Source of the DNA: an uncultured Gammaproteobacteria bacterium
GTDB lineage: Bacteria; Patescibacteriota; Patescibacteriia; Veblenbacterales; UBA10138
DNA: 64,000 nt
Direction of reading: 5' to 3'
NCBI GenBank assembly: GCA_964453605.1
Contig: CAYVOI010000001.1
Location: 612,095 to 676,094 of the forward strand
Below are positions 301 through 49,565 of the stretch, piece after piece (position 1 is the first letter of the stretch; the number at the start of each line of letters is the position of its first letter). A model generated the notes under the pieces. That model did not search any database and was not told the DNA's origin. It saw only the letters and a list, made by a program, of their open reading frames with translations. The position numbers and the translations under genes were made by a program.

Positions 301-2058
301 TTAGCTTGGGTTAGCTGGAGTGGCTTTAGGTTTAGAGACACCAAACGGGAACCGCCAGGTGGTCACACGGCCCACAGCTACTAACCTAAGCAAGGTGCGG
401 GTAACCGTGATGGCCGAGAACATGCTCACTAAGATACCTAAGATAAGCGTGATAGCAAAACCTTTTACCAAGCTGGTACCAAACCACATCAGCACGAACG
501 CCGTAATAAGGCTCGAGACGTTAGAGTCGCGAATCGACGTCCAAGCACGCTTGAAGCCCTCTTCAATAGCCTGGGTAAGGGGTTTACCAGCCCTAAGCTC
601 TTCACGTAAACGTTCAAAAATAAGTACGTTAGCATCAACCGCCATACCAATGGAGAGTATGTAGCCGGCGATGCCAGCCAGTGACAGCGTAATAGGAATG
701 AGCTTAAAGATGGCAAGTGTCAGCCCTGAGTAGAGTGCCAGCGCACCAACTGCCAGGAGCCCGGGCAAGCGGTAGTAGGCAATCATAAAGAACGCCACCA
801 GCAGAATACCAAGGAGGCCAGCTAGCAAACTCTTCTCCACAGAGGTGCGGCCTAGGGTAGCATCAACCTTCTCCTGTGTCAGCAGCTTCACGGGCACCGG
901 CAGTGCACCAGAGTTTAGGCGCTGGGCCAGCTGCTTAGCCTCGGGCAGGGTAAAGTTACCGGTAATAACCGCGCTACCACCGGTGATAGCCTGCTGAACG
1001 GTGGGGATGCTGATGGGGCTACCATCCAAAAAAATGGCTACGGGCTTGCCTACGTTGCGGGAGGTGATGTCGGCGAACAGCTTTTTACCTTCCTCGTTAA
1101 AAGTCAGGTTCACCTGGGGTAACCCCGTGCGCTGGTCAAACTCCACGGTTGCGCGCGTGAGCTGCTTACCCGAGAGCTGTGTCGTGACCCAGGTGTCAGC
1201 TGTCGGCGGCTTTTGTGTCTTGATCAAAATGTGGCTAGCGCGAACCTCCAGACCGTTAGCACCTTGCCGCTCGCCGGTTTTCTTAATAATGTGGTAACCA
1301 AAGTCGCTCTGCACCAGCTCCGGGTACACCTGGCCAACTTTAAGGGTCCAGACCGCATCCTCAAAGGGTTTTACCATCACGCCTTTACCAAAGAAGCCAA
1401 GGTCACCACCCGCGACCTTGCTGCCCTCATCCTCCGAGTACTGCTTAGCCAGACTAGCAAAGTCCTCGCCGCGCTTGACGCGCGCGAGCAAGCCTTGGGC
1501 TTTCGTTTTAGCCTCAGCGTTGTACTTGTCAGTGGCCGAGGTGTCTGGTGCCGCGGTGCTCTGCTCTTTAAACTCTAAAATCGGAGTTTCACCAATAACC
1601 TTGATGGCCTGCTGTACGTCCGTAACACCCGGCAGTTCTACGATCACGCGGTAGTTCTCGCCAACCTTGTCGGTCTGGACCAGGGTTTCCGCCAAGCCCT
1701 GCGGGTTCACGCGGCGGTCGATAATATCCCTGACCCCTTGAATAGCATCCGCCTGGTCACTGGAGGCTACGTGCGACATGTCAGCTTGGTACACCAGGTG
1801 GCTGCCACCTCTGAGGTCAAGCCCCAACTCAATGTTGTGCTTGGTAAACCATGAGTTACCAGGTACCCAGGTAGGGAGCTTGGGCCAATCAACCAAAAAC
1901 GCTAGCACAGCCAAGAGCAGTATGGCTATACACGAATGCCATACCTTCTTACGTGGTGTCATGTTCCGGAACAGCAGCTTGTAGAGCCCTACAAACGGCC
2001 ACCAAATGAACCCTAGTGCTGAGCTTATCCCCTCCCCGAGTTTGCGGAAAAACGCCAT
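301..2058 (-). CDS. secD: Protein translocase subunit SecD
   Basis: 585 aa with an N-terminal TM, a large periplasmic domain (GLDLRGGSHLVYQAD) and C-terminal multi-TM bundle. It sits immediately upstream of secF. Confidence 0.85.
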   Translation of the reverse strand: MAFFRKLGEGISSALGFIWWPFVGLYKLLFRNMTPRKKVWHSCIAILLLAVLAFLVDWPKLPTWVPGNSWFTKHNIELGLDLRGGSHLVYQADMSHVASSDQADAIQGVRDIIDRRVNPQGLAETLVQTDKVGENYRVIVELPGVTDVQQAIKVIGETPILEFKEQSTAAPDTSATDKYNAEAKTKAQGLLARVKRGEDFASLAKQYSEDEGSKVAGGDLGFFGKGVMVKPFEDAVWTLKVGQVYPELVQSDFGYHIIKKTGERQGANGLEVRASHILIKTQKPPTADTWVTTQLSGKQLTRATVEFDQRTGLPQVNLTFNEEGKKLFADITSRNVGKPVAIFLDGSPISIPTVQQAITGGSAVITGNFTLPEAKQLAQRLNSGALPVPVKLLTQEKVDATLGRTSVEKSLLAGLLGILLVAFFMIAYYRLPGLLAVGALALYSGLTLAIFKLIPITLSLAGIAGYILSIGMAVDANVLIFERLREELRAGKPLTQAIEEGFKRAWTSIRDSNVSSLITAFVLMWFGTSLVKGFAITLILGILVSMFSAITVTRTLLRLVAVGRVTTWRFPFGVSKPKATPANPS

Positions 2059-2164
2059 GGATAGTTCAACCGGTAAACAAAAGCCTGAACGCTCAGGCCA
2101 AACGTAACAAACGTACTATAGCATGGAACCTTGGGGGAGGCAAGACAAGCGGCTGTCTAGCAGC

Positions 2165-3928
2165 TTAGGCAATAAAACCGCCTGCCTGTAGCCCCCACAG
2201 AGTTTTGTACAGGCCACCCTTCTTCTCTATGAGCTCTGCGTGGTTGCCCTCTTCCTGCACCGCGCCATCGCGCACCACCACTATACGGTCGAGTTTCATA
2301 ATGGTTGAGAGCCGGTGGGCAATAACCAACGTGGTCTTTCCGCGCATGAGCGTGGCCAGTGCATCTTGGATAAGCGCCTCGGTTTGCGAATCAAGGCTCG
2401 AGGTGGCCTCGTCGAGCACTAGAATAGGCGCGTTCTTCAGAATGGCCCGGGCGATAGCCACGCGCTGGCGCTCACCACCAGAAAGCTTTACCCCGCGCTC
2501 CCCTACAAATGTCTGGTAGCCCCGGGGTAACTTGCTAATGAATTCATCACAGTGTGCCTGTTTAGCCGCCGCTACCACCTCGGCGTCGGTGGCATCACGC
2601 CGACCGTAGCGAATGTTATCTATGAGTGTACGGTGGAACAGCACTGGATCCTGCGGCACAAAGCTTACCCTCTGGCGGAGTGAATCTTGCGTGACCGAGG
2701 TAACGTTCTGACCATCGATGGTAATTTCACCACTCGTCAGGTCGTAGAACCTAAGTAGCAGTGCAACAAGTGTACTCTTGCCCGCCCCAGACGGCCCAAC
2801 CAAACCTACGTGCTCGCCAGGTGCGAGGCGTAGGGAAAAATTCTTAATTACCTGATGTGAGTCTATGTAGGTAAAGTTGACGCCCGTAAACTCCAGCGCA
2901 CCACGTGGGACTTGGAGGGTGGTGGCGCCGGGTCGGTCTTGCACCTGGTGAGGTTCGTTCAGTATTTCTACCATCTCGGCGGCGTCACCAAAGCGTCGGT
3001 ACATGCGACGAATAACCCGCCCGACACCCCACAGCTGGTCGAACACACGTATGACGTACACCTGCACCAGCACAAAGTCACCTATGGTGACAGCTCCTTG
3101 CCGCCAGAGCCTCAAGGCCGCGTAAAATATGGCAAACTCGAGCAGGACCATGAAGGCTACTTGTACTGCTTCGATGGTGGAGTCAAAGTTCCAGCTCCGA
3201 CGATCGAGCTGGAAGCGCTCCTCGGTGAGCTGACCAAACGCTCGCCGCTCATCGCTGTGCGCCGTGAACAATTTCACGGTCGACTGGTTCATGACAGTAT
3301 CAGCCAGGTAGCCACTCACCGCCGAGTCAGCTTTCGCCGCCACCTCGCTGAACTTAAGCTGCTGCAGTGAGAGGAAGTAGTTTATAGTGAGGTAGAGTAT
3401 AAGCCAACCGCTCAGCAGAGCACCGAGCACGGGGTAGCTCAAGAACAGCACCACCAGTATGAAGCTGAGACGGACCACCGTGCGCAGTATTTCCCACAAA
3501 AACATGTCGGTAATGTCTTCAAACGCGCCCACCAGCCGGCCCACACGTTTCACCAGGGCGCCGACAAAGCGATTGCTGAAGAAACCGAACGAGTGCCGGT
3601 GGAGGTACTCGAAACAGGTATTACTGAGTTCGGCAAAAATCCTCGGCTGGAAAAAGTTGTTCGTGAATGTGGCCACGCGGTACATGAGCCACATCAGCGC
3701 ATTAATGCCAAGAATGACGAACAAAATGTGGGCAAGTTGAGGAACTACCAACGCTCGAGCTAGTTCGGTAGTTGCCAGCACGTCGAAAAAACGCTTGTAG
3801 TAGAGCGGTGTTACCACCTCCAGGGCAGCGCCAATGGTGATGGTTGATACAATCAACCAAAACGCGCCGCGGTAGCGGCGCACGTGCTGCCAGAACAGCT
3901 GGTACGTTTGCTTAGTGATGTGCTTCAT
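2165..3928 (-). CDS. ABC transporter ATP-binding/permease fusion (MsbA-like exporter)
   Basis: 587 aa with six N-terminal TM helices and a C-terminal NBD. Walker A GPSGAGKST, ABC signature LSGGERQR, Walker B ILVLDEATSSLD. Confidence 0.85.
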   Translation of the reverse strand: MKHITKQTYQLFWQHVRRYRGAFWLIVSTITIGAALEVVTPLYYKRFFDVLATTELARALVVPQLAHILFVILGINALMWLMYRVATFTNNFFQPRIFAELSNTCFEYLHRHSFGFFSNRFVGALVKRVGRLVGAFEDITDMFLWEILRTVVRLSFILVVLFLSYPVLGALLSGWLILYLTINYFLSLQQLKFSEVAAKADSAVSGYLADTVMNQSTVKLFTAHSDERRAFGQLTEERFQLDRRSWNFDSTIEAVQVAFMVLLEFAIFYAALRLWRQGAVTIGDFVLVQVYVIRVFDQLWGVGRVIRRMYRRFGDAAEMVEILNEPHQVQDRPGATTLQVPRGALEFTGVNFTYIDSHQVIKNFSLRLAPGEHVGLVGPSGAGKSTLVALLLRFYDLTSGEITIDGQNVTSVTQDSLRQRVSFVPQDPVLFHRTLIDNIRYGRRDATDAEVVAAAKQAHCDEFISKLPRGYQTFVGERGVKLSGGERQRVAIARAILKNAPILVLDEATSSLDSQTEALIQDALATLMRGKTTLVIAHRLSTIMKLDRIVVVRDGAVQEEGNHAELIEKKGGLYKTLWGLQAGGFIA

Positions 3929-3999
3929 GTAACCTCGTATGACGTAAATACAACTCCGCCCTGAGGAGCTACTGTGCCTAACATATACTTAAGACGGAT

Positions 4000-4512
4000 T
4001 TAGCGACGATCCGTTACAGAATTACTCGTACGGCGTGGCCTAGTGGTTACGTACCAGGTGACGTAGGCAATGGTGAGGGCGCTGTAATTCAGAGCCATGA
4101 ACCACGGCTCGGCCCAGGAAAAGCTGTTGACGTGGAAACTCGACAGCGGCCACAGGAACGGGGTGGGGAAAAACGCCGTGCTGTGGGTAAAAATGTCTAT
4201 GCCGATGTGTAAACCCCAAGCACCCAACAGCCATGGCATGCGTTTACCACGAGCGAAATATACGACCACTACCACCGCTACCCACACTACCAAGCTATGC
4301 GTGTAGTTATACAGGTGGTAGACATAGGTCGGTATGCTAAGAAGCTCAGGTTTACCAATTGTGAAAAGTCCCTGAAACAAGCGCTGCACAAAGAACACGC
4401 CAAAACTGGCGAGGTCAGGCGCCACGCCAAAAAACACTGCCCACAGCCGCTGCCGCAGTGGAACTTTCTGGTACACTACTGCTGTCCACAAGCCATGAGC
4501 GAAAATATCCAT
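4000..4512 (-). CDS. Membrane-bound metal-dependent hydrolase-like protein (DUF457/YdjM-like)
   Basis: 170 aa polytopic membrane protein with several His residues (MDIFAHGLWT..). The family assignment is from memory of the DUF457 pattern. Confidence 0.4.
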   Translation of the reverse strand: MDIFAHGLWTAVVYQKVPLRQRLWAVFFGVAPDLASFGVFFVQRLFQGLFTIGKPELLSIPTYVYHLYNYTHSLVVWVAVVVVVYFARGKRMPWLLGAWGLHIGIDIFTHSTAFFPTPFLWPLSSFHVNSFSWAEPWFMALNYSALTIAYVTWYVTTRPRRTSNSVTDRR

Positions 4513-4514
4513 GG

Positions 4515-5300
4515 CTATTTGGACAGAATGAGCGCTAGGTCAATAACGAACAGACCGATGATGGCCCACTCGAGCAGGTTGGCCGTGCGGTCTTGCAGCC
4601 GCTCGATAATAAACTCACTTGAGCGCGCCATAATGTTGAGCTTGCGCTCCAGCGCGGCCGCCCGTGGGCCAATGGAGAACTGCGCACTCATCTCCTGATA
4701 CAGGTTCTGCATCTCAAGGCCACGGTCCCAGAGCACGTCGGGGTCGTCTAGGAGCTGTAAGTTGTAGGCTAGCTCGTGGTGTATAGCGAGCGCTAGCCCG
4801 ACCACCTTCACGAGCTCCCGGCGCCTGAGTACTAACCTACCCTCGCGCGAGAGCTGGTCAACCGACTCTTCGAGCTTACCTAGGGTTCGGTCAATCAAAT
4901 CCTCATAGTACTCCAAACTCACCGAGCGTGACAGCACGGTGGCTACCAGTTTTACCGTGTCGAGCCAAAAGGTTTTGACCGTGGCTTCTTCCGTGCTCGG
5001 GGCAGAGCGCCGAACCCCGACGTAGAGAGTAAAGGTGTCAGTGAACTCGCGGCGGTTGGTGCGCGAGGCGTAAGCTTTCAGCCGCTCGAGCCACTGCCTG
5101 GCCTCATCAGCGGTAAAGTTAAAAAAGACTACCGAGCCGTAGGCAAACACCACCACGTACTTATCCACCCGGCTCGCAACCACGAGCGGGCTGCGCTCAA
5201 CCACCTTCCCCCAGCCCTCGGCCGACGGGCGCAGGGCCGCCAGGTCAAAGCTGGTCGCTACGTCATAGGCTAAAACAGAAATGGAACGCAGCGCTGCCAT
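4515..5300 (-). CDS. DUF155 (Rmd1/YagE-like) family protein
   Basis: 261 aa with a soluble N-domain and one C-terminal TM. The pattern resembles the Rmd1/DUF155 family. It abuts the upstream ORF with a 2-nt gap. Confidence 0.45.
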   Translation of the reverse strand: MAALRSISVLAYDVATSFDLAALRPSAEGWGKVVERSPLVVASRVDKYVVVFAYGSVVFFNFTADEARQWLERLKAYASRTNRREFTDTFTLYVGVRRSAPSTEEATVKTFWLDTVKLVATVLSRSVSLEYYEDLIDRTLGKLEESVDQLSREGRLVLRRRELVKVVGLALAIHHELAYNLQLLDDPDVLWDRGLEMQNLYQEMSAQFSIGPRAAALERKLNIMARSSEFIIERLQDRTANLLEWAIIGLFVIDLALILSK

Positions 5301-5321
5301 AGGCTAGTGCTCTGCTAAAAG

Positions 5322-5528
5322 TTAGTACGCTTCACTGTGTGCTACCAGGTAGTGCCCGGCGCTCTCGCGCGTGAGCACGTAGTGTCTACCCTCGTGGTCC
5401 TGGAACTTGGCACGGTGTTCGAGTTTGGCCTGCTCAAACAAGGCCTCAGCTTCCTGCCCCATACCCTCCAGGTGGTAGAGCCCGTGCTCGTCACCTTCGA
5501 CCATGCGATCTAAAATTTTGAGCTGCAT
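5322..5528 (-). CDS. Small hypothetical protein (68 aa, His/Glu-rich)
   Basis: An ORF in the same orientation within a tightly packed minus-strand gene run. No recognisable motif. Confidence 0.3.
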   Translation of the reverse strand: MQLKILDRMVEGDEHGLYHLEGMGQEAEALFEQAKLEHRAKFQDHEGRHYVLTRESAGHYLVAHSEAY

Positions 5529-5539
5529 ATGCTTAAACG

Positions 5540-6088
5540 TTAGTGGGCACTGCCAGCCGCGGCTTTCTTCCGTGCCTGCTTACGCTCGAGGTAAATAACT
5601 AAGGTGATGAGGAACAGTGCTAAAACCGTTAGAAAAAAGTACCAGGCGGTAATACGGTGGAAGCGGAACAGGTAGAGCGTCACCTCGAACAAAAACTGCA
5701 GACCAAACACAATCGCCACCGTGTTCGACACCCGAAATAGTGCACGCTGCCAGGTGCCGAGGCGCCTGTTTCTGAGGAACAGCATGAGCGCCAAGAAAAA
5801 CACAAACAGCGGCAAGCTGACATAGGAGTGCAGCAGCAGTGAGGTAAAGATGTAGTGCTCCGCCGCACAGCTCTCGCCCCCCAAGGTCGGCAGCAGGCTG
5901 CCCTGGTTACAGCTCTGGTACTGTGGGTTGTAGAGACGGTTCAAATCGTAGAGTCCGCGTTCCCCCAGCGCAATGAGCGTGGCGGCGAGGAGTAGCGCCA
6001 AGAACACGCTCAGCGGCGTCAGGTGGTCTTTGGGTTTACTAAGGTGAGGCGTGTGCTGTACCGGCGGCGCGGTTTGAATGGGTGACAT
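5540..6088 (-). CDS. Integral membrane protein (4-5 TM, paired Cys in first loop)
   Basis: 182 aa with strongly hydrophobic segments and a QSCNQG...GESCAAEHY cysteine pair. A DsbB-like fold is possible but not supported by a CxxC motif. Confidence 0.45.
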   Translation of the reverse strand: MSPIQTAPPVQHTPHLSKPKDHLTPLSVFLALLLAATLIALGERGLYDLNRLYNPQYQSCNQGSLLPTLGGESCAAEHYIFTSLLLHSYVSLPLFVFFLALMLFLRNRRLGTWQRALFRVSNTVAIVFGLQFLFEVTLYLFRFHRITAWYFFLTVLALFLITLVIYLERKQARKKAAAGSAH

Positions 6089-6263
6089 ACAGCTCTAGCA
6101 TAGCGCGGGAGGAGCCTGCGGAGCAAGCTCTTGAAATCTCACAACTGTACAAAGAGGTAGGCCACCGTAGCAACCGTGGCGAGAGGCGGTAACTGGCGCC
6201 ACAGCTAAAATGTACGAGGTGCCCGAGCCATACGCTGAGCCTTGACCTGGTGGAGCCTAGCCC

Positions 6264-6803
6264 CTAGGCAGAAGGTACGCGCTGCTTCCTCATAGTTACC
6301 GTACTGCCCTCAAACTCGACCGTATCAAACGCCCCGCGCATAATGGTAATACCGTAGCCACCCTCGGAGGCAGCGGCGGCCGCCTCCACTGCTGCGGTCG
6401 GACCTGGTGGTACAAAGCCCTGACCCTGATCAGTCACCCGCACAACTATGTGCTCCGAGGTAAGGTCGAGCTGCACGTGCACCTTGAGCTTCCCCCGCTC
6501 ACTTACTTGAGCCGCCGCCAGACGTTGGTGGTAGAGCTGCTCGGCCCCGTGCTGCCGCTTCCCTGGCACCTGCAGGTTGCCATGCACTATGGCATTCGTA
6601 ATAGCTTCATCAATCGCCATGGGCACGTTGCCGAGCTCGTCTTCGGTCCAACCAGCAGCGGCTAGGCGTACGGCGAGCTCACGGCGTACAGCCTCAAGCA
6701 CGCCGGTGGTACTCGGGAATACCCAGTCGTTACCCGTGAGCTTTACCTCCTCACTGCCCGGTGGTTCACCACCCTCACGGTGTTCTGGTCGTGCTCCTAC
6801 CAT
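6264..6803 (-). CDS. Histidine-kinase-like ATPase (anti-sigma regulatory factor / RsbW-SpoIIAB-type Ser/Thr kinase)
   Basis: 179 aa with HATPase_c-like N-box (AIDEAITNAIVHGN), a G-box (TDQGQGF) and GGYGITIM motifs. Confidence 0.55.
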   Translation of the reverse strand: MVGARPEHREGGEPPGSEEVKLTGNDWVFPSTTGVLEAVRRELAVRLAAAGWTEDELGNVPMAIDEAITNAIVHGNLQVPGKRQHGAEQLYHQRLAAAQVSERGKLKVHVQLDLTSEHIVVRVTDQGQGFVPPGPTAAVEAAAAASEGGYGITIMRGAFDTVEFEGSTVTMRKQRVPSA

Positions 6804-12953: not shown

Positions 12954-13586
12954 TTACAAGAACTTGAACGTCTGTATTGCTTCCTCGAAGAGGCCCTGCA
13001 CTTTGACTCGGTCAAACTCCTTTATACCCTGGTCTGGCGAGTAGTTGCCGATGTTAGTAGAGTGGATGGTGTACTCCACGGCGTAGCAGGTGCCATTACG
13101 AACCGTGCGGTAGCTGGTAGTGTCATAAAAATTCCCAGCACCGGCATCGCTTAAGGTAAACTTGGTAAACTCCACACCGTTGATAGAGACCGTGCCCTGC
13201 CGAGTAGCGTACTCCCCTATTCCGCTGGTGCAGGTTGAAACTGCTTGAGCGTTCTTACTCGAACCAACCGTGAGCGCGGCCTCACCAAAATTGGTCATTG
13301 GTGCAAACTCGCGCGGCAGGCCAACTACTAGTTCTAGGAGCCCTGGGGTAGTGGTGCCCTCGCGCCACACTTGCACAAAGCCGATTTCGTTCTGCTTGAG
13401 CGTAAGCTCCTTGGGGTAACTTATAGTGAACGTTTGAGCGGGGTCGCTAAACGATACCAGGTTTTGGTTCACGGGAGCTGGAGTCGGTGCTGATGGTTTC
13501 TGGTTCACCGTAACTACAATAAAGTAGCCCGCCACAACAACAGCGGCCACAGTAATACCAGTTATCCAAGGTAGTGTTTTATTCAT
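12954..13586 (-). CDS. Membrane-anchored/secreted protein with N-terminal MNKTLPW signal-anchor (paralog of 56222..56809)
   Basis: Start assigned to the internal Met: MNKTLPWITGITVAAVVVAGYFIV, then a Pro/Thr linker and a beta-rich domain. Confidence 0.5.
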   Translation of the reverse strand: MNKTLPWITGITVAAVVVAGYFIVVTVNQKPSAPTPAPVNQNLVSFSDPAQTFTISYPKELTLKQNEIGFVQVWREGTTTPGLLELVVGLPREFAPMTNFGEAALTVGSSKNAQAVSTCTSGIGEYATRQGTVSINGVEFTKFTLSDAGAGNFYDTTSYRTVRNGTCYAVEYTIHSTNIGNYSPDQGIKEFDRVKVQGLFEEAIQTFKFL

Positions 13587-13658
13587 AGGTAATACAATTA
13601 TACCACCATACCTCAATCTCACGTATAGTGTTGCACGATTTTAGCCCAAGCCTGTTAA

Positions 13659-13982
13659 TCAAATATCTACTTCAAACCTCCAATCAACTGGCGTTAGGGT
13701 AATAGTGATCGGGTGGCGAAAGTTATTATCCTTTCTCCACTTAGAAAGGGGTTCTTTTATAGCCTCGAATAATTTTTCTCTGTCATTAACCTTACTTGCA
13801 CTCATTTCAACAAAAATTTCTACTGGGGCTACCCCAATTTTTATCCGAGGACTATCGGCGTAGACAAAAACTTCCGAAATTCCGGTAGCGTGCTGAACGA
13901 TTTTAATCACAGCATTAGACAAAGCTACAATTTCTTTGTCTTCAACCTTCTGGTCGTCAAATTTTATGTTTATCATTGGCAT
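13659..13982 (-). CDS. Hypothetical protein, possibly tautomerase-like (N-terminal Met-Pro)
   Basis: 107 aa starting MPMINIKF, in a clearly AT-richer segment. The tautomerase assignment is weak. Confidence 0.3.
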   Translation of the reverse strand: MPMINIKFDDQKVEDKEIVALSNAVIKIVQHATGISEVFVYADSPRIKIGVAPVEIFVEMSASKVNDREKLFEAIKEPLSKWRKDNNFRHPITITLTPVDWRFEVDI

Positions 13983-14019
13983 AGACTACTCAATAATCAT
14001 ATTGCTGACATAGCACTTC

Positions 14020-14562
14020 CTACATTCCTTTCTCGCCCACCGGGCGCTCACCATCAAGGTATAAACATCCCTCTGACCCAACCTTAGCGCTATGCATTAC
14101 CTTTGCAGGAAAAGTTATCTCATCTCCAGGTTTGAGTGTGGAAACCTTACCATTCATAGCGATCTCAATGGACCCCTCAAGTACAACGAGGAGCTGATCA
14201 CCAGGGTGATCATGGTCAGGGAAAAACTCGTTGGGTGGATCATTGTACTCGTTAATTATCGAGAAACCCTCTGCCATCATCCGCTGTTTGATTTGTTCTT
14301 TATTGTCCATGGCACTTCTTATACTTTTTCCCATAACGTAATGGGGCTCATCGGGTAATTCAGAAGGTTCACTTACATTATATTGCTCAAGCACCTTCCG
14401 CCTAGCATCCCACCCTGGTCCTGGTCCTTTTTCCGGCGTGCTATGGGAGTAGTACTGCCGCAGGGTATAACCAGTGTCTACCTTGCGATAGCTAACCCCG
14501 TTGATAACCCTTTCTCCTGCTGCCGCGTTGAATGGCAATTCTTGCTCCATACTACTTCCCAT
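14020..14562 (-). CDS. Cupin domain protein
   Basis: The C-terminal half has cupin motifs (PDHDHPGDQLLVVLEGS...GDEITFPAKVMHSA). AT-rich context. Confidence 0.55.
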   Translation of the reverse strand: MGSSMEQELPFNAAAGERVINGVSYRKVDTGYTLRQYYSHSTPEKGPGPGWDARRKVLEQYNVSEPSELPDEPHYVMGKSIRSAMDNKEQIKQRMMAEGFSIINEYNDPPNEFFPDHDHPGDQLLVVLEGSIEIAMNGKVSTLKPGDEITFPAKVMHSAKVGSEGCLYLDGERPVGEKGM

Positions 14563-14583
14563 AGCACTCTTTAAAAGGCTACA

Positions 14584-15519
14584 TTAATGGGAACCTAAAT
14601 TATTCTTATTTATAAACTTGATAAGTTCATCTGACAACTTATCCTCTTGTTCCTGAAAATCGTGATCACAATTGGTAATCTGACAAGTTTCAGTTCTTGG
14701 ATTTTCCTTCTTCATCAGTTCAAGAGCATCTTTAATTGGAATAACGGTATACTCATGTTTATCGCCAATAACTGCAAGTATTGGAATTTTTATCTTCGAG
14801 TACCCCGGCAATTTCTTTTTATGAAACGGTAATGCGTCATCAAAAGCAGGGTTTGCGTCTGAAAAATTAATATACGAATCAGCAGACTTAGGCATTATAC
14901 CTGCATATGCATCTCTATCTAGGAACAAATCCCCCTTACCTTCTGCAATAAATGTATGAGCCAGTTGTAATGTCTTCTCATAATCTTTAACCAGAACAGG
15001 TTCAGACCCTGGCGAGGTAGCAGGTGCAAGTAAAATAAGCGCGGAAATCTTACCACGGTACTTTCCATGAAGCATGTAGTAAACGACTTTCTCGGTTCCT
15101 AAGCTATGTCCTGAAAGAATGATTTTTTCGTAACCCTCTTTGAGGACAAATTCCACCCATGCGTCAATATCAATTATGCAATCTTCAAATTTCTCAACCG
15201 CCGCACCGTTTCCCTGCCAAGCGTTGTAAACACCTTCGCCCCGATTATTCGTCGACAACATCGATACACCATTTCCTAAAAGATCTTTGGCCAGGACTTC
15301 AATAAAATACTCTTCATAGAAGTTACTCGCTGTGCCGTGAATATGGAGAAAAACGGTTTTGCTTTTGTCGGCACGTAGGTGGAGGGCATGGAGCCAGATG
15401 CCGTCCGACGTTTTTATTCGCTCTATTGGATAATTCATATAATTATCTTTTACCCATATTAACTTTGTGCTCCTCCGTTCCCAAAAACCAACAACGTTTA
15501 TACTTTTCTCCACTCCCAC
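14584..15519 (-). CDS. Alpha/beta hydrolase fold protein (GHSLG nucleophile elbow)
   Basis: 311 aa with GxSxG (ILSGHSLGTEKV). AT-rich context. Confidence 0.6.
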   Translation of the reverse strand: MGVEKSINVVGFWERRSTKLIWVKDNYMNYPIERIKTSDGIWLHALHLRADKSKTVFLHIHGTASNFYEEYFIEVLAKDLLGNGVSMLSTNNRGEGVYNAWQGNGAAVEKFEDCIIDIDAWVEFVLKEGYEKIILSGHSLGTEKVVYYMLHGKYRGKISALILLAPATSPGSEPVLVKDYEKTLQLAHTFIAEGKGDLFLDRDAYAGIMPKSADSYINFSDANPAFDDALPFHKKKLPGYSKIKIPILAVIGDKHEYTVIPIKDALELMKKENPRTETCQITNCDHDFQEQEDKLSDELIKFINKNNLGSH

Positions 15520-37807: not shown

Positions 37808-38047
37808 CTAGACCGGCACAACCTCGGTTACTTGGGGCAGGGCTTTCTTGAGCGCCTCTTCCAGGCCGAACTTCAGGGTGATAACCGACATGGCGCAGTG
37901 CTCACACGTGCCTTGGAGAGAAACCAGCACCCGGCCAGTGTCGGGCTCAAAATCTACCAAGCTAATGTGCCCGCCGTGGCCGGTAACGTAGGGCTCGGCC
38001 TCGGCGAGTACTGATTGAATTTTAGATACTACCTCAGTCTGCTCCAT
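37808..38047 (-). CDS. NifU-like Fe-S cluster protein (Nfu-type C-terminal domain)
   Basis: GTCEHCAMS CxxC motif. An extended -10 TGTGGTATACT lies 6 nt before the ATG (MEQTEV), suggesting a leaderless or short-leader mRNA. Confidence 0.7.
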   Translation of the reverse strand: MEQTEVVSKIQSVLAEAEPYVTGHGGHISLVDFEPDTGRVLVSLQGTCEHCAMSVITLKFGLEEALKKALPQVTEVVPV

Positions 38048-38083
38048 AAAGGCAGTATACCACACGAGACGCTTTGTATGCCT

Positions 38084-38788
38084 GGAATAATAAAAGCGTA
38101 GGGGCTCATAAAAAACCCACTACGCTTATGTTGCACCCCCAAACCCATAGGGGGCTTTGTTCGACGAGCCGGCGAGTGCAGTGCCGAACCTCTTGCTGTG
38201 TACAGCAGTTCTGCGTAGTGCTCCTCGGCGGGGGTAATCAGGCCTTGTTACCTGATTTTCTCCAACCCAGCTTCCTCGGCTGGTGCAGCCACTAGGCACC
38301 AACGATGTTGATGTTTGGGTTTTGGTGCCTACCCGTAGGCAGGTGATCCCGGCAAGGCTGCCGTGGGCAAACAACGGATAATGATTGTGGGTGGCGGTGG
38401 TATGGTAATCCTTAAGGCGAAGACCGTCAACAAACGAAAAACCCAGCGGACCGGCGGCGCTGGGGGGGTGTTGTGCGAGCAGGCAGCTCGCTGTTTTGAG
38501 CTTGAGACAAGTACAGAGTGAGCGGGGGGTGGATGCCCCAGACGATAGAAGGTTGGCCTGACGTAGCCGGTAGGCCTTACTGTGTTGATCGTATCGTATT
38601 CTCAGTCTGCTAGCTGTTAAGCTCCCGAAGTGCCATACCCCGATGGCGCTTGCCGCGTAGCTTCCAAACGCGGATTGTGTTGCGTGTGTTACGTGTCGCT
38701 CTGGGCGACGTGCAAGTGCTCGGAAGCTGAGCAGCAGGACCTCGCACTCGGCGAGGATTTTTGTTACCCGCATATAATGGGCAGGTAA
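38084..38788 (-). ncRNA. Candidate large structured ncRNA (about 700 nt) with its own promoter and intrinsic terminator; class unknown
   Basis: Minus-strand TTGACA (38817-38822), 16-bp spacer, TACACT (38795-38800). A minus-strand terminator at 38094-38127 (AAGCGTAG...CTACGCTT) is followed by a U-tract. Many perfect internal hairpins, and the only long ORF (221 aa) has non-protein-like composition. Confidence 0.3.
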
Positions 38789-38852
38789 CACTTGAGTGTA
38801 GGTGATCTGAGCATTTTGTCAAGGGCTAAGCTGTGAATAACCACCAGTAACC

Positions 38853-39602
38853 TCAAAGTTTACCCACAATAATCATTACCTGCGCGCCCTGTGCAACGTC
38901 GCCACCATTCCAATCGTGCACGGCCTGGCTCAAGACGCTCTGCTCGTAGCGGTAGCTTTCGCCGCGCCTGGTGCCCGGGTCATTGGTTATAAACTCGCTG
39001 CCCTGGTAGCCCTTAACGAGCAACATGTGGTACAAGGGCCCCGGCGCTTTGTAGTAAGGGTTACCTAAGCGACGGCCAAGGGCAGGGAGTAGCACCAGCT
39101 GCCGAGACGCCAGAGCAGTGCGCATAGCAGCCGCATCGTAGGGCACTACCTTGGCGCTGAGATGGTAGTAGTTTTTCAGAATGCCTGCCACCTCGGCTGC
39201 CGTGGTGTCCTCAAAAAACCCCAGGTGCTCTTTCTCCCAAGCCACCAGCTTCACAATTTCCTGGTCAGCGTAGGCGGGGTCAAGCTCGAGCGTTTTGTTG
39301 CCCTTAAAAAATTCAGCGGCCATGAGCATGCTGGCCTCTTCACAAGCGTCCTGGTACGGCTCGGCCCAGTTGGCAAACGGCGCCTGGGGCGTAAACGGCA
39401 CGGGCAGCACCACAATGCTGTGGGGCGGTTGAGTTGGAGTTGGGGCAGGGGCCTTAGGCGCAGTAGTAGGTACCGGGGCTGGGGCGGGCGCATTCACCGG
39501 CGGCGGCTGCAGCACAAGGTGTGGAGACTCAGCCTCAGCACAACCCAAGCCAACCAATGACAACCCGAGGACTACCAGACTAAGTTTTTCAAACCTCAAC
39601 AT
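38853..39602 (-). CDS. Secreted C39-like (Peptidase_C39_2) papain-fold domain protein with Pro/Ala-rich linker
   Basis: Start at the internal Met (MLRFEKLSLVVLGLSLVGLGCA signal). QAPFANWAEPYQDACEEASMLMAAEF resembles the C39_2 catalytic Cys region. Confidence 0.55.
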   Translation of the reverse strand: MLRFEKLSLVVLGLSLVGLGCAEAESPHLVLQPPPVNAPAPAPVPTTAPKAPAPTPTQPPHSIVVLPVPFTPQAPFANWAEPYQDACEEASMLMAAEFFKGNKTLELDPAYADQEIVKLVAWEKEHLGFFEDTTAAEVAGILKNYYHLSAKVVPYDAAAMRTALASRQLVLLPALGRRLGNPYYKAPGPLYHMLLVKGYQGSEFITNDPGTRRGESYRYEQSVLSQAVHDWNGGDVAQGAQVMIIVGKL

Positions 39603-39711
39603 ACACCTATGGTAGCGTCGGCGCTCTGGTAGCGCAAACCTGACCCTTGACGAGGTTAACACCATACCCTATACTAAACGACGTTGTTCCCTACTCGTTT
39701 CTAGACTACTT

Positions 39712-39996
39712 ATGGCACATACAAAGGCCGGTGGCTCCACAGCCCTGGGGCGCGATTCCGAAAGCAAGCGCTTAGGCGTTAAGCTTTTTGCTGGCCAATT
39801 TGCTAAAGCTGGCATGGTCATTGTCCGCCAGCGCGGTACCAAGTTCTTCCCTGGGCTTGGGGTTAAGAAGGGCGGGGACGATACCCTATTCGCTGCGACA
39901 AGCGGCGTGGTGCAGTTCCTCAAGAAGTGGCGCCGGGGCTACAACGGCAAGCTCAAACTCGCGAAGGTGGTTACAGTAGTTCCTCAGGAGAAGTAA
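39712..39996 (+). CDS. rpmA: 50S ribosomal protein L27 (with unusual C-terminal extension)
   Basis: [30 protein letters not shown]... canonical L27 N-terminus. 94 aa. Confidence 0.9.
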
Positions 39997-40026
39997 TCTG
40001 TTTAGTTTTATAGTTGAAATACAAAG

Positions 40027-40050
40027 AGGCGCCCACCAGGCGCCCTTTTC
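40027..40050 (+). terminator. Intrinsic terminator after rpmA (GGCGCC-CACCA-GGCGCC + CTTTTCGTT)
   Basis: Self-complementary GGCGCC arms followed by a T-tract. Confidence 0.55.
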
Positions 40051-40060
40051 GTTATCCTAC

Positions 40061-40092
40061 CATTTACCCTTTCGCGCGAAAGGGTAAATGGT
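40061..40092. repeat. 32-bp perfect palindrome CCATTTACCCTTTCGCG/CGAAAGGGTAAATGG
   Basis: Seen in sequence. No U-tract follows, so it is more likely a protein-binding site or structured element than a terminator. Confidence 0.6.
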
Positions 40093-40165
40093 TAAAATAT
40101 TAACGACAAGCTCGCGAAGGTGGTAACGGTCGTAGCACAGGAGAAATAAATTAGAATCTAAAATC

Positions 40166-40200
40166 GTCCGCCTATACGGCGGACGATTTTGTATAATAAA
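40166..40200. terminator. Bidirectional intrinsic terminator (13-bp stem AAAATCGTCCGCC/GGCGGACGATTTT)
   Basis: Follows the stop of the minus-strand gene 40207..40605. Confidence 0.7.
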
Positions 40201-40206
40201 CAGAGC

Positions 40207-40605
40207 TTACTTCTGGTCTGCTAACTCTAGGGACTCTACGCCGTACTCAAACGTGCCGCGCTCGAACTGGACCACTATAGGATACCTGTTCCCTGGATAA
40301 ACACCGTCGAGCGCCTCGTTGTAACCAACCACCTGTCCAACTTCAGGGTTATCAATCATTCTCACGGATGCTCCAGGAATAAAACCCGCGGCGCGGGCTC
40401 GGTCTACAGCGGCTTTCGTATTCTCTGCAGTATTACCTTGTTTTAGCTCTTTAGCCAAACGAAGCAGTTTCTCTAGGTCTTCAGGGTTCTGCGGCAGATG
40501 TTCAACCCCTAAACCAATCCCGGGATTCCTGTATTCCTTACTTGGCATAAGAATGAAGTAAAGTGTAAGTGCCTTTAACGTACTACAACTATTCCGAAAA
40601 ATCAA
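40207..40605 (-). CDS. Hypothetical protein (AT-rich module, gene 3)
   Basis: 132 aa. Overlaps the upstream gene by 4 nt (ATGA). No recognisable motif. Confidence 0.4.
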   Translation of the reverse strand: MIFRNSCSTLKALTLYFILMPSKEYRNPGIGLGVEHLPQNPEDLEKLLRLAKELKQGNTAENTKAAVDRARAAGFIPGASVRMIDNPEVGQVVGYNEALDGVYPGNRYPIVVQFERGTFEYGVESLELADQK

Positions 40606-41279
40606 TCCTTTAACTTACGGTACCTTTCAAAAAACTGCCTCTTAACCCGACGGCTCACTTCGTCTACCACTTTAGCGCGTTTGGAAACCGGCGTGCGGCG
40701 GAGCAGTCTAATTTTTTCCACCGCGGCCCGTTTGAGCTGGGCTCGCCAGCGCTTGTCTTTGAGCGCTAACAAACTATATGCCAGATCCTCTCGCTCAAGC
40801 GCTACACGATTTTTACTGTAGCGTAAAGGTGAGCCATCAAACTCCACACCCATCACCTTAGCCTTGGCGCCAAAAATTTTCCGCGCTAGTGCTTTCATCT
40901 TTTGCTCGCGGCTACGCTCGCAAAAGTAGAGCATTCTGCTTTTCCCTACCATGCGCTTTACAGCCAGCATGTTCTCTAGTGCCGAAAGCTCCCTAACGCA
41001 AGGCTTAATCTTCCAGCTGTTACTCAGCCCCAAACCTCGCACTCGCGGTTGCAACCACTTAGTAATCTCCCCTGCCTCGGTCCGGCGGTAGGGTGCGAAC
41101 AAATCCGTCGGCCCACCGACGGGCATAATGGTCAGCGATTGTTTGCGATACCCCTCCCACAAATAGTTAAACACCTGCACCAGGTAGGCGTGGTACCCAA
41201 GGTCGGTAAAAATATCTCTCGGCACGCCGTAACCGTTGACGGCAGCAAATAATTTTTTCATACACTGAAATCGTATCAA
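40602..41279 (-). CDS. Hypothetical protein with highly basic C-terminal half (AT-rich module, gene 2)
   Basis: 225 aa. K/R-rich C-terminal 90 aa suggests nucleic-acid binding. 3-nt gap to the upstream gene. Confidence 0.45.
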   Translation of the reverse strand: MIRFQCMKKLFAAVNGYGVPRDIFTDLGYHAYLVQVFNYLWEGYRKQSLTIMPVGGPTDLFAPYRRTEAGEITKWLQPRVRGLGLSNSWKIKPCVRELSALENMLAVKRMVGKSRMLYFCERSREQKMKALARKIFGAKAKVMGVEFDGSPLRYSKNRVALEREDLAYSLLALKDKRWRAQLKRAAVEKIRLLRRTPVSKRAKVVDEVSRRVKRQFFERYRKLKD

Positions 41280-41282
41280 AAG

Positions 41283-41726
41283 TCAAATGTCATGCTTCAA
41301 CACTTCCACAGCTTCGCCTAAAATATCCAGGTCTTTTTTCTTCTCCTCGCGGGGTAACATTGAATACCGCTCACGCTGCTCTGAAGATGCAGTGGCAGAA
41401 TTACGATCAAGCCAAAAATCGTGAATTAAATAAAGCACATCTCTCAACTTTTCTATGGCCACCTTAGCGGATGCCACATTCTCCTCTCTCCAGTCTCGTG
41501 GTAAATCTACAAAATTGGTATTTGCAATGTCCAGCTCAGTCTGACCGCCGTGAGCAGCAATCCACTCCTCGTCATTCGTGGATTTAATACGTTTCTCATA
41601 AATACCATCCTTATCTTTTCGCCGCTCTCGCCAATTCTCGTGCATGCCCGACGCAAGCTCTTCAATTAATTTTGTCATGGCTGCCTCGCGCTGGCGCTCC
41701 GGTGAGTTAGTATATGATTCTGACAT
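41283..41726 (-). CDS. RyR (ryanodine-receptor) domain-like protein (AT-rich module, gene 1)
   Basis: HENWRERRKDKDGIY...NFVDLPRDWREENVASAKVAIEKL resembles the bacterial/phage RyR domain pattern (HExW...R..GW.YG...LvpY.eLpe.eK..dR). Confidence 0.45.
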   Translation of the reverse strand: MSESYTNSPERQREAAMTKLIEELASGMHENWRERRKDKDGIYEKRIKSTNDEEWIAAHGGQTELDIANTNFVDLPRDWREENVASAKVAIEKLRDVLYLIHDFWLDRNSATASSEQRERYSMLPREEKKKDLDILGEAVEVLKHDI

Positions 41727-41747: not shown

Positions 41748-43872
<2,125 letters not shown>

Positions 43873-48638: not shown

Positions 48639-49565
48639 TCATTTTTCGGCATTGCCTGCTTCCTGGGCTACACGATGCAAAACTTCTATGAGATGATTAT
48701 CACGAAATAGAGTCTCTATCTGTTTATCTAGTGTATCACCTACGGTGCCCTCACCAAAGGGAATCTCAAATTTGCTGCCGTACCGCTCCTGGTAGTAGTT
48801 CATATAGTTCATAAGGAGGTACTTTTTTTCTTCCTCAATAGATTTCGGTAGGTACTTTTGTTGGCTGCTATCGACAACGCTATGGGCGGCATCATTCGCC
48901 TGTGTCTCAAGCCATCGTACAGTTTCAGCTCCTGTAAAAAATTCTTCAAGATAGAGGTTTACTGGCGTCGAAAGGTCGGGGTAACGTATAAACCCTAACG
49001 TGTCATTAGCATTCTGAGCACGTTCTTGGGCCATATGCCTAGCGTGCATACCTTCGTGGTAAGGCGTACTCACTTTAGCCTCTTGTAGCGTGTCAGCTGG
49101 TCCGTAAAAGATATAGACAGTATCCCTCCCAAGGTTAAACCGCGTGCGAGCGCCGGCTGGTCTAGCGGAACCTGCAAAGGTGAGTGCGGCCACCTTTCCA
49201 AAGAGAGCTTCAAACAGAGCTTGATCTGCTTCGCTTAAATTTTTCCTTTCATCTTCTAGACTTCCCACAACGACAGGGATTTTTAGATCGTCAAATTTAG
49301 GATAGAAGCGTTCATAGCCACTATACCGCTTCTGTGTTTCGGCTGTACGATAGCTAACCTTGTGAGAAGGCGATTCTTTGGCTGTTTCAAGTTCTTGGCC
49401 AAAACCGGGGTGTGTGGCGACAAACTCCATAAAAGCACCAAGTGCTGCCAAGCCGCAGTACTTAGCAGTCCTGGTGAACTTTTCGCGCCATTCGTATCCT
49501 CTTCCACTACCCTGGTGCTCTTGCGACTGTAGCGGCTCCGGCAGGTGATGTTCTAGTGACTCCAT
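48639..49565 (-). CDS. Hypothetical protein with HExxH motif (possible zinc metallohydrolase), AT-rich insert within rfb cluster
   Basis: 308 aa. YHEGMHARHM with a downstream LEEFF Glu. Nucleotide composition is visibly AT-richer than the flanking rfbA/rfbD. Confidence 0.45.
   Translation of the reverse strand: MESLEHHLPEPLQSQEHQGSGRGYEWREKFTRTAKYCGLAALGAFMEFVATHPGFGQELETAKESPSHKVSYRTAETQKRYSGYERFYPKFDDLKIPVVVGSLEDERKNLSEADQALFEALFGKVAALTFAGSARPAGARTRFNLGRDTVYIFYGPADTLQEAKVSTPYHEGMHARHMAQERAQNANDTLGFIRYPDLSTPVNLYLEEFFTGAETVRWLETQANDAAHSVVDSSQQKYLPKSIEEEKKYLLMNYMNYYQERYGSKFEIPFGEGTVGDTLDKQIETLFRDNHLIEVLHRVAQEAGNAEK

Follow-up and report, generated by a model that had tools for sequence, protein, structure and literature searches.

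Organization of the region between pyrG and rpmA

The window analysed here comprises 64,000 nucleotides (nt) of contig CAYVOI010000001.1 (assembly GCA_964453605.1, positions 612,095 to 676,094 of the forward strand), an 876-kb contig from a small genome of the Patescibacteria or candidate phyla radiation (CPR). The element in question is a group of three small minus-strand open reading frames (ORFs) at positions 40207-41726 of the window, between pyrG and rpmA. The original prediction, made without database searches, had described them as one translationally coupled, horizontally acquired module, possibly a phage-derived or defence/anti-defence cassette. The ORF listing confirmed three minus-strand frames at 41283-41726 (ORF1, 147 amino acids (aa), ATG start), 40602-41279 (ORF2, 225 aa, TTG start) and 40207-40605 (ORF3, 132 aa, TTG start). 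Both flanks were identified by Pfam: pyrG (41748-43415, minus strand) encodes a CTP synthase of 555 aa with CTP_synth_N and GATase domains, and rpmA (39712-39996, plus strand), which is convergent to the three ORFs, encodes ribosomal protein L27 (Ribosomal_L27). Together with pyrG, rplI is located upstream of ORF1 on the same strand. Taken as a whole, the locus is the compact, unremarkable tail of an operon.

The start codons had to be reassigned for two of the three genes. Junctions of 3 and -4 nt, on which the predicted coupling was based, arise only if the upstream-most TTG codons are taken as starts, and the four-base overlap between ORF2 and ORF3 reads TTGA and not ATGA. Homologues, by their N-termini, and the deposited gene calls both point to ATG 41261 for ORF2 (40602-41261, 219 aa) and ATG 40548 for ORF3 (40207-40548, 113 aa): proteins of the ORF2 family start six to eight residues before an invariant NGYGVP, as ORF2 does from ATG 41261, and relatives of ORF3 open with MNKEY.PFG, matched by MPSKEYRNPG from ATG 40548. 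The 147-aa form of ORF1 is backed by an N-terminus (M.E.Y.N) that is kept in the orthologue of the closest available relative, a contig from a Joint Genome Institute (JGI) metagenome referred to here as L002; the deposited call is 131 aa long. With these starts, the gaps amount to 21 nt between pyrG and ORF1, 21 nt between ORF1 and ORF2 and 53 nt between ORF2 and ORF3. Since coupling depends on the TTG starts and the homologue-backed starts leave gaps of 21 and 53 nt, translational overlap or coupling of the three ORFs is not supported.

A terminator scan revealed no terminator-like site between pyrG and ORF1 or among the three ORFs. A strong hairpin was found at 40164-40194 (inverted repeat I2, stem of 13-14 bp), which ends the minus-strand unit and, on the plus strand, follows a relic of rpmA described below. 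It folds with -22.5 and -22.6 kcal/mol on the two strands (z -5.1 and -5.9). Because the fold is strong on either strand and is flanked by an A-run and a U-run, it is a plausible bidirectional terminator, as originally proposed. The genes rplI-pyrG-ORF1-ORF2-ORF3 thus form a compact unit that is probably co-transcribed and ends at this hairpin. A terminator-like hairpin of rpmA itself lies at 40028-40044 on the plus strand (six GC pairs followed by CTTTTCGTTA; -14.6 kcal/mol, z -3.4).

The segment is indeed AT-richer than its surroundings. Its GC content is 0.488, compared to a mean of 0.556 (sd 0.035) over all 1520-nt windows (z = -1.94), and it ranks as the 26th lowest of 625 such windows; the anomaly is real and moderate. 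It is carried by ORF1 (GC 0.458, GC at third codon positions (GC3) 0.463) and ORF3 (0.482 and 0.470) and not by ORF2 (0.514 and 0.591), which is within about one sd of the gene mean (all genes: GC 0.559 ± 0.046, GC3 0.648 ± 0.089). That the three frames are spurious was considered and rejected: homologues exist for all of them and the structural models of ORF2 and ORF3 are confident (see below).

ORF1 is a divergent, probably tandem RyR/R12-like protein related to RyDEP

Eleven homologues of ORF1 with 39-68% identity were found, mostly in metagenome-assembled genomes (MAGs) of Patescibacteria (e.g. Falkowbacteria) and some in Nocardia. The original prediction had recognised a pattern like the RyR domain in the product, and this assignment holds at the level of profiles, but not by the Pfam cutoff. 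The profile of the ORF1 family matched the sequences of the Protein Data Bank (PDB) RyR-domain entries 6uhi (E 3.6e-7), 6uag (4.3e-4) and 3nrt (6.7e-4) in an hmmsearch, in two pieces, an N-terminal helix with HE.W and a C-terminal helix with LPxEEKxxD; 3NRT and 6UAG are structures of a "putative ryanodine receptor" of Bacteroides thetaiotaomicron. Further, PF02026 (RyR) matched 10 of the 11 family members at E <= 1, below its cutoff, with a best value of 5e-5.

RyR-domain proteins of phages (RyDEP) were recently shown by experiment to be anti-Thoeris factors which bind or cleave 2'/3'cADPR (cyclic ADP-ribose) via H75, W78, H100 and D117 (PMC13232231). An alignment of seven RyDEP sequences, mycobacteriophage DyoEdafos gp78 and six phage relatives, was compared to an alignment of 20 ORF1-family sequences by hhalign, which gave a probability of 81.9% and an E-value of 1.1e-5 over 68 columns. 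Significance was reached only with the family alignment; the comparison of the ORF1 family with the single gp78 sequence was insignificant. H102, W105 and K131-D132 of ORF1 are paired with H75, W78 and K116-D117 of RyDEP; across the 20 sequences, H102 and W105 do not vary and D132 hardly does. In the first half of ORF1, another H-x2-W (H29/W32) is invariant and H59 almost so; read by eye, H59 lies in the corresponding loop of the first repeat, in which N83 would take the position equivalent to D117. The family-invariant residues are H29-x2-W32, D66-I-A-N-T70, E82-N83 and H102-x2-W105. Judged from these patterns, ORF1 may be a compact tandem of two RyR half-units with four helices in all.

ORF1 and RyDEP are of the same size class (~140 aa) and share, as read from the alignments, a four-helix plan, the H-x2-W on the helix aligned to H75/W78, an LP-x-EE/Q-K-x-K-D motif aligned to the K116-D117 helix and a helix-1 motif, A...HE.(W/N)R, that resembles that of RyDEP homologues. 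Unlike RyDEP, ORF1 has an invariant H-x2-W in both halves together with a family-specific VDIANT...LP.DW.EEN segment, and whereas RyDEP proteins are encoded by phages, often beside NAD-salvage (NARP1) genes, ORF1 is no phage early gene within a NARP1 operon but a chromosomal gene fixed behind CPR housekeeping genes.

More distant ORF1-like domains were found on nine viral contigs of IMG/VR, and, like the phage members, ORF1-like domains are associated with NAD/ADP-ribose enzymes. They are in frame with ADP-ribosyltransferase domains in L034 (E 1e-24), L033 (2e-15) and L039 (3e-33); the fusion in L039 adds a NUDIX domain and that in L035 is to a 2H phosphoesterase. The RyR-type domains of L033, L034, L035, L039 and L040 lie inside ORFs of 447 to ~2480 aa. 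The terms "RyR" and "ryanodine" are absent from a survey of polyvalent proteins (PMC5512222) and from a survey of NAD-ADPr in viruses (PMC9503650), and a tblastn search of the phage genomes in GenBank with ORF1 yielded chance matches only (Enterococcus tail proteins).

Two independent lines, the homology to RyDEP, in which three of the four named residues appear to be kept, and the domain fusions, lead us to propose that ORF1 is involved in NAD/ADP-ribose chemistry. ORF1 would be a lineage-conserved RyDEP homologue with a four-helix pocket for an adenine/ADP-ribose-type nucleotide; candidate ligands are ADP-ribose (ADPR), a cyclic ADPR isomer or another NAD-derived molecule, which might be sequestered or hydrolysed. 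Whether ORF1 binds an adenine/ADP-ribose-type nucleotide at all appears evenly balanced to us, and it is rather doubtful that the ligand would be a cyclic ADPR-type signal that ORF1 sequesters or cleaves. Only tentatively, we suggest a cellular, vertically kept clade of RyDEP-like tandem RyR proteins that bind or hydrolyse an ADP-ribose-derived signal, which would act as stand-alone proteins in Patescibacteria and as ligand sensors in giant polyvalent proteins, with ADP-ribosyltransferase, NUDIX or 2H domains, on actinobacterial and other viral contigs.

Four points speak against this view of ORF1. PF02026 scored only 15.1 bits on ORF1 itself (E 0.029), below the gathering threshold of 27.4 bits. 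The GWxYG...K-T-H-P loop, which carries the phosphate-contacting H100 of RyDEP, is deleted in the ORF1 repeat that is aligned to the catalytic unit. The two-repeat architecture and the pocket were read from alignments only. Finally, "lineage-conserved" here means two genomes, L002 being the only close relative with extended flanks.

ORF2 is a divergent DUF218/YdcF-like protein with a basic helical tail

Homologues of ORF2 (n = 42, 30-60% identity) all come from uncultured bacteria. The 25 loci in GTDB species genomes are assigned to Uhr-, Magasanik-, Kerfeld-, Andersen- or Kuenenbacteria or to the "Patescibacteria group", some titles being evidently mislabelled, and the family is restricted to Patescibacteria. 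An AlphaFold2 (AF2) model of ORF2 was obtained with a mean predicted local distance difference test (pLDDT) score of 94.3 and a predicted template modelling (TM) score (pTM) of 0.90. It has a Rossmann-like core of five parallel strands (residues 1-140), followed by three long basic helices (150-218). Among viral predicted structures (BFVD), the best matches were a member of the YdcF family (E 2e-5; TM score normalised to the target, 0.65) and DUF218 proteins, and PF02698 matched two of 30 family members, both divergent ones, with a best E-value of 4.7e-7. The structural matches and the presence of PF02698 in family members lead us to regard ORF2 as a divergent cytoplasmic DUF218/YdcF-like protein, and the model has a YdcF-type alpha/beta fold. 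A single match of ORF2 to uL3 in an hmmsearch against PDB sequences was spurious, and the structure search P0051 gave no match for ORF2.

Like the DUF218/YdcF proteins of E. coli (YdcF, SanA, ElyC, YgjQ), ORF2 has a Rossmann-like alpha/beta core with five parallel strands and, like YdcF, it lacks a membrane anchor and would thus be cytoplasmic. It differs from DUF218 in its family-specific motifs (NGYGVP, PYRRTEAGE, ALENML, YFCExTR and FDGSxxRY) and in the additional C-terminal ~80 aa with the three basic helices. The second product had been noted for a lysine/arginine-rich C-terminus, and the last 79 aa carry a net charge of +15; the N-terminal domain is basic as well, and the pI of the whole protein is 10.5. 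An envelope-biogenesis role as for SanA and ElyC is therefore unlikely for this cytoplasmic, highly basic protein. A Thr/His/Glu triad was proposed for SanA, and YdcF binds S-adenosylmethionine (SAM) (PMC12176290). ORF2 probably acts as an enzyme or regulator that binds a nucleotide or SAM, and its basic helical tail suggests that it may associate with nucleic acid or the ribosome.

The DUF218/YdcF assignment has to be set against three observations. The ORF2 protein of the window did not match Pfam, so the PF02698 threshold was not reached. Foldseek of the model against the PDB returned generic HUP/Rossmann/NadD/USP-like folds only, with E > 1e-3. By eye, the SanA triad seems not to be fully kept: where DUF218 has sEA, nTxeN and TSxxHxxRA, the ORF2 family has RTEAGE, (T/S)ALEN and CExTR, and the His may be replaced.

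Genes of the ORF2 family were found between genes for Tag and an RluD-like pseudouridine synthase. No relatives of ORF2 were found in IMG/VR. In a locus of Magasanikbacteria UBA11699 (L023, ~1387-6642), the ORF2-family gene lies two genes downstream of rplI-pyrG; this echo of the gene order in the window may be chance, because it is seen in only one of the 25 GTDB loci.

ORF3 is a small acidic protein with a predicted SH3-like barrel

ORF3 had been called unassignable, and a word-indexed search indeed returned only ORF3 itself; an exhaustive HMMER search, however, brought up at least 58 representative clusters with E <= 1e-3, and 20 of these reached E <= 1e-10, so that ORF3 is not an orphan. 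The family has a conserved C-terminal block, GF.PGA.V....E.G.V.GYN....G.YPG.RYP..V.F.RG.FEY. The AF2 model (pLDDT 89) consists of two N-terminal helices and a C-terminal five-stranded SH3-like barrel. The best Foldseek matches were PsaE, KOW and CPH barrels, all of them weak (E > 1e-3), and the family did not match Pfam or PHROG. In the model, the C-terminal 55 residues resemble SH3-like barrels of the PsaE, KOW, CPH and Tudor type (target-normalised TM score ~0.6), but there is no sequence relationship to these, and the helical hairpin and the GF.PGA motif are specific to the ORF3 family. The protein is acidic (pI 5.0). ORF3, probably a small SH3-like adaptor as judged from the model, belongs to an undescribed, unnamed small-protein family.

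The family is mobile. Outside the window, an ORF3-family gene starts 2 nt after mreB in one MAG; another is located on a phage-like contig among small same-strand genes with a PHROG polymerase, and a third lies between ComEC/DUF8128 and a TraG-like ATPase on a further contig. The sites of these genes are L086 6001-6318, L087 6001-6345 and L079 3793-4164.

ORF1 is inherited, ORF2 and ORF3 occupy a variable slot

The contig L002 has the order ctpA-rplI-pyrG-ORF1 homologue, an unrelated membrane protein of 234/237 aa, a 184-aa gene on the opposite strand and rpmA. Protein identities between the window and L002 are 98% for rpmA, 89% for pyrG, 84% for ctpA, 72% for rplI and 68% for ORF1. ORF2 and ORF3 are absent from the syntenic slot. 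Homology at the DNA level extends from 46896 to 41308, 25 nt before the ORF1 stop codon, and resumes at 39999, just past the stop codon of rpmA. By these limits, the variable slot begins exactly at the ORF1 stop and ends exactly at the rpmA stop. Pfam revealed nothing relevant to the locus on the slot genes of L002 or on the other AT-rich genes of the window, a metagenome scan with rplI found only L9 proteins at ~30% identity, and an exact look-up of the L27 protein returned the same sample only.

ORF1 follows pyrG directly in L002 as well, and the pyrG-ORF1 gap is 21-25 nt across both genomes. In L002, too, the GC content of ORF1 is low (~0.41 vs 0.55). The proportion of nonsynonymous differences between the two orthologues (pN) is 0.196 versus 0.80 for synonymous differences (pS), which indicates purifying selection. 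Since ORF1 is syntenic and AT-rich in L002 and under purifying selection, it is an old resident of the lineage and not a recent arrival. Conserved synteny combined with ordinary composition had been named in advance as refuting the prediction, and we take this to apply to ORF1: the pyrG-ORF1 order recurs in L002, where the gene is likewise AT-rich, and purifying selection acts on it. The proposed horizontal acquisition is supported for ORF2 and ORF3, which L002 lacks at the slot and near which the rpmA relic lies, but not for ORF1.

The rpmA edge of the slot carries a scar. From rpmA towards ORF3, the terminator of rpmA (40028-40044) is followed by a palindrome (40059-40092), a relic of an rpmA 3' end (40107-40149) and the bidirectional terminator. 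The relic is 43 nt long, lies on the plus strand, includes the stop codon and forms a direct repeat (D1) that is 81% identical to 39954-39996; by eye, the homology may extend back to ~40095 with a 6-nt gap. Seven of its eight differences from rpmA are at third codon positions (P = 0.0026) and, by our own count from the alignment, it is about equally distant from the rpmA genes of the window and of L002. The third-position bias and the equal distance show that the relic stems from a different functional rpmA allele rather than from a local duplicate that decayed. It is the scar of a recombination event at the border of the variable slot. In the simplest reading, a block consisting of rpmA tail, terminator, ORF3 and ORF2 would have been imported by recombination from a related genome with the same arrangement. 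The donor would have had an rpmA ending in ...GTGGTAACGGTCGTAGCACAGGAGAAATAA, followed by the hairpin of 40164-40194 and then by ORF3-ORF2, and the scar would be the truncated 3' end of the foreign rpmA plus its own bidirectional terminator. Both the direction of transfer and the donor we infer.

The palindrome between the rpmA terminator and the relic (40059-40092, inverted repeat I3) is perfect over 34 nt (100% complementary), folds with -22.8 kcal/mol (z -6.4), is unique in the window and may be a feature of the junction. It is also the place where caution is due in accepting an import: two Logan contigs (L001 and L078), assembled independently from one sequencing run, both end inside it and overlap by 25 nt, so that the join depends on this short palindromic stretch, and a mis-join of rpmA to the relic is possible; the synteny with L002 supports adjacency. 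In addition, the relic is the one feature from which the direction of change, gain here versus replacement in L002, can be read.

The slot resembles replaceable slots or hotspots between conserved core genes, at which islands are exchanged through homology of the flanks, in that two close relatives share the flanks (pyrG-ORF1 and rpmA) with unrelated cargo between them, and in that the slot of the window still holds the remains of a foreign allele of the flanking gene. In contrast to such hotspots it is tiny (~1.3-1.5 kb, two genes) and has no integrase or mobile-element gene and no recognisable defence cargo. A prophage or integrative element was rejected, since an integrase is missing and the one repeat that resembles att sites is that of the rpmA relic, with copies 153 nt apart.

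The order of genes also bears on the possibility that ORF1 and ORF2 are accessory or regulatory partners of CTP synthase in a nucleotide-metabolism operon, their placement behind pyrG being selected. The adjacency of pyrG and ORF1 in two genomes, the position of the ORF2 homologue in Magasanikbacteria and the nucleotide-binding-type folds or motifs of both proteins are in line with this idea. However, ORF1 homologues of other CPR genomes were found behind iPGM (in two Falkowbacteria-like genomes) or behind unrelated genes (an uncharacterised gene in a third genome) and not behind pyrG, 24 of the 25 GTDB loci of ORF2 have no pyrG nearby and ORF2 is missing from the slot of L002. We consider such an operon improbable.

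The three families do not form a module

Co-occurrence of the three families was surveyed by tblastn and profile hidden Markov models over 87 fetched loci; these include 27 loci of the ORF2 family, 17 of the ORF1 family (eight cellular, nine viral) and five of the ORF3 family. Across roughly 45 independent loci, a second family was not found anywhere except in the window and its own Logan copy. Clustering of neighbours revealed no conserved neighbour of ORF2 across lineages, and the surroundings of the homologues of all three families are mostly housekeeping genes. Since the families do not co-occur elsewhere, the triad is not a module, contrary to the original prediction. The three genes are functionally unrelated, have two different histories and form no system; the triad is a chance neighbourhood.

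The survey also speaks against a reading of ORF2 and ORF3 as a toxin-antitoxin-like or addiction pair with joint mobility. The two genes are adjacent, their products are of opposite charge, they arrived in the slot together and relatives of ORF3 are found in mobile-looking contexts, the phage-like contig and the site beside the TraG-like gene. Nevertheless, not one ORF3-family gene was present within 6 kb of the 27 ORF2-family loci, nor was an ORF2-family gene found in the reverse search, ORF2 is widely conserved, appears to be single-copy and has housekeeping neighbourhoods, and neither protein matches PADLOC. An addiction pair is thus hardly credible.

A single phage-derived defence or anti-defence cassette, for example with ORF1 as an anti-Thoeris RyDEP and ORF2 and ORF3 as its partners, would agree with the homology of ORF1 to the RyDEP family, which counters Thoeris (PMC13232231), with ORF1-like domains in giant polyvalent-type proteins on the nine IMG/VR contigs, with the one ORF3 relative on a phage-like contig and with the low GC, compactness and common direction of the segment. 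The phage links suspected in the original prediction exist for ORF1-like domains and for one ORF3 relative, but in IMG/VR not for ORF2, and they do not extend to a cassette: no pair of the three families was seen together elsewhere, and none of the three proteins matched PADLOC-DB v2 components at E <= 0.1 or PHROGs. The Pfam-annotated gene calls of ~10 kb beyond pyrG and ~6 kb beyond rpmA included no integrase, no structural gene of a phage and no gene for defence. ORF1 keeps its place behind housekeeping genes in several CPR lineages (pyrG in the window and in L002, iPGM in the two Falkowbacteria-like genomes) and is under purifying selection. A cassette of this kind is very unlikely.

In sum, we consider it likely that the tail of the rplI-pyrG unit consists of three unrelated genes, the inherited ORF1 and ORF2/ORF3 as filler that recombined into a replaceable slot, and that it is no defence cassette. 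The reality of the genes, their family assignments, the lack of co-occurrence, the synteny of ORF1, the boundaries of the slot and the relic are observed.

Other regions of the window

No tRNA gene was found in the whole 64 kb by ARAGORN, nor any Rfam family at gathering score, and an Rfam scan of 37900-40300 by E-value gave chance-level matches only. The most AT-rich stretch of the window is 13300-15500 (GC ~0.41 vs 0.556), with a 107-aa gene without a Pfam match, a cupin gene (14020-14562) and an alpha/beta-hydrolase gene (14584-15519); recent foreign DNA is more plausible here than in the three-ORF segment. A 308-aa gene at 48639-49565 (GC 0.475, no Pfam match) is located between genes for an RmlD-like epimerase and an NTP-transferase, which are adjacent in L002; this suggests that it was inserted, in this strain only, into a cluster of sugar-nucleotide genes. 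Between genes for a NifU-like protein and a C39-like peptidase, ~790 nt (38066-38852) contain a 221-aa frame of odd composition as the only ORF; ~380 nt (38050-38430) have no counterpart in L002 and no Rfam match. The region might hold an RNA that has not been described, or a gene in decay.

Significance

As a cassette, the triad carries no significance; the by-products of its analysis, the lead on ORF1 and the scar in the slot, are useful. What is new here is confined to divergent members of families that are already known or still lack a name. On a small scale, the locus shows cleanly how cargo is replaced between two conserved core genes of a reduced CPR genome. The scar is datable, almost all of its substitutions being synonymous, and documents homologous or illegitimate exchange between related Patescibacteria. 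The best lead is ORF1 as a cellular RyDEP-like protein: its clade and the viral fusions are testable candidates for the role of non-phage RyR domains. If the proposed function is true, the biochemistry known as anti-Thoeris activity would extend from phages to regulators of NAD/ADPR signalling that ultra-small episymbiotic bacteria encode themselves, and the RyR-like domain would be a general ADPR-sensor module in polyvalent proteins.

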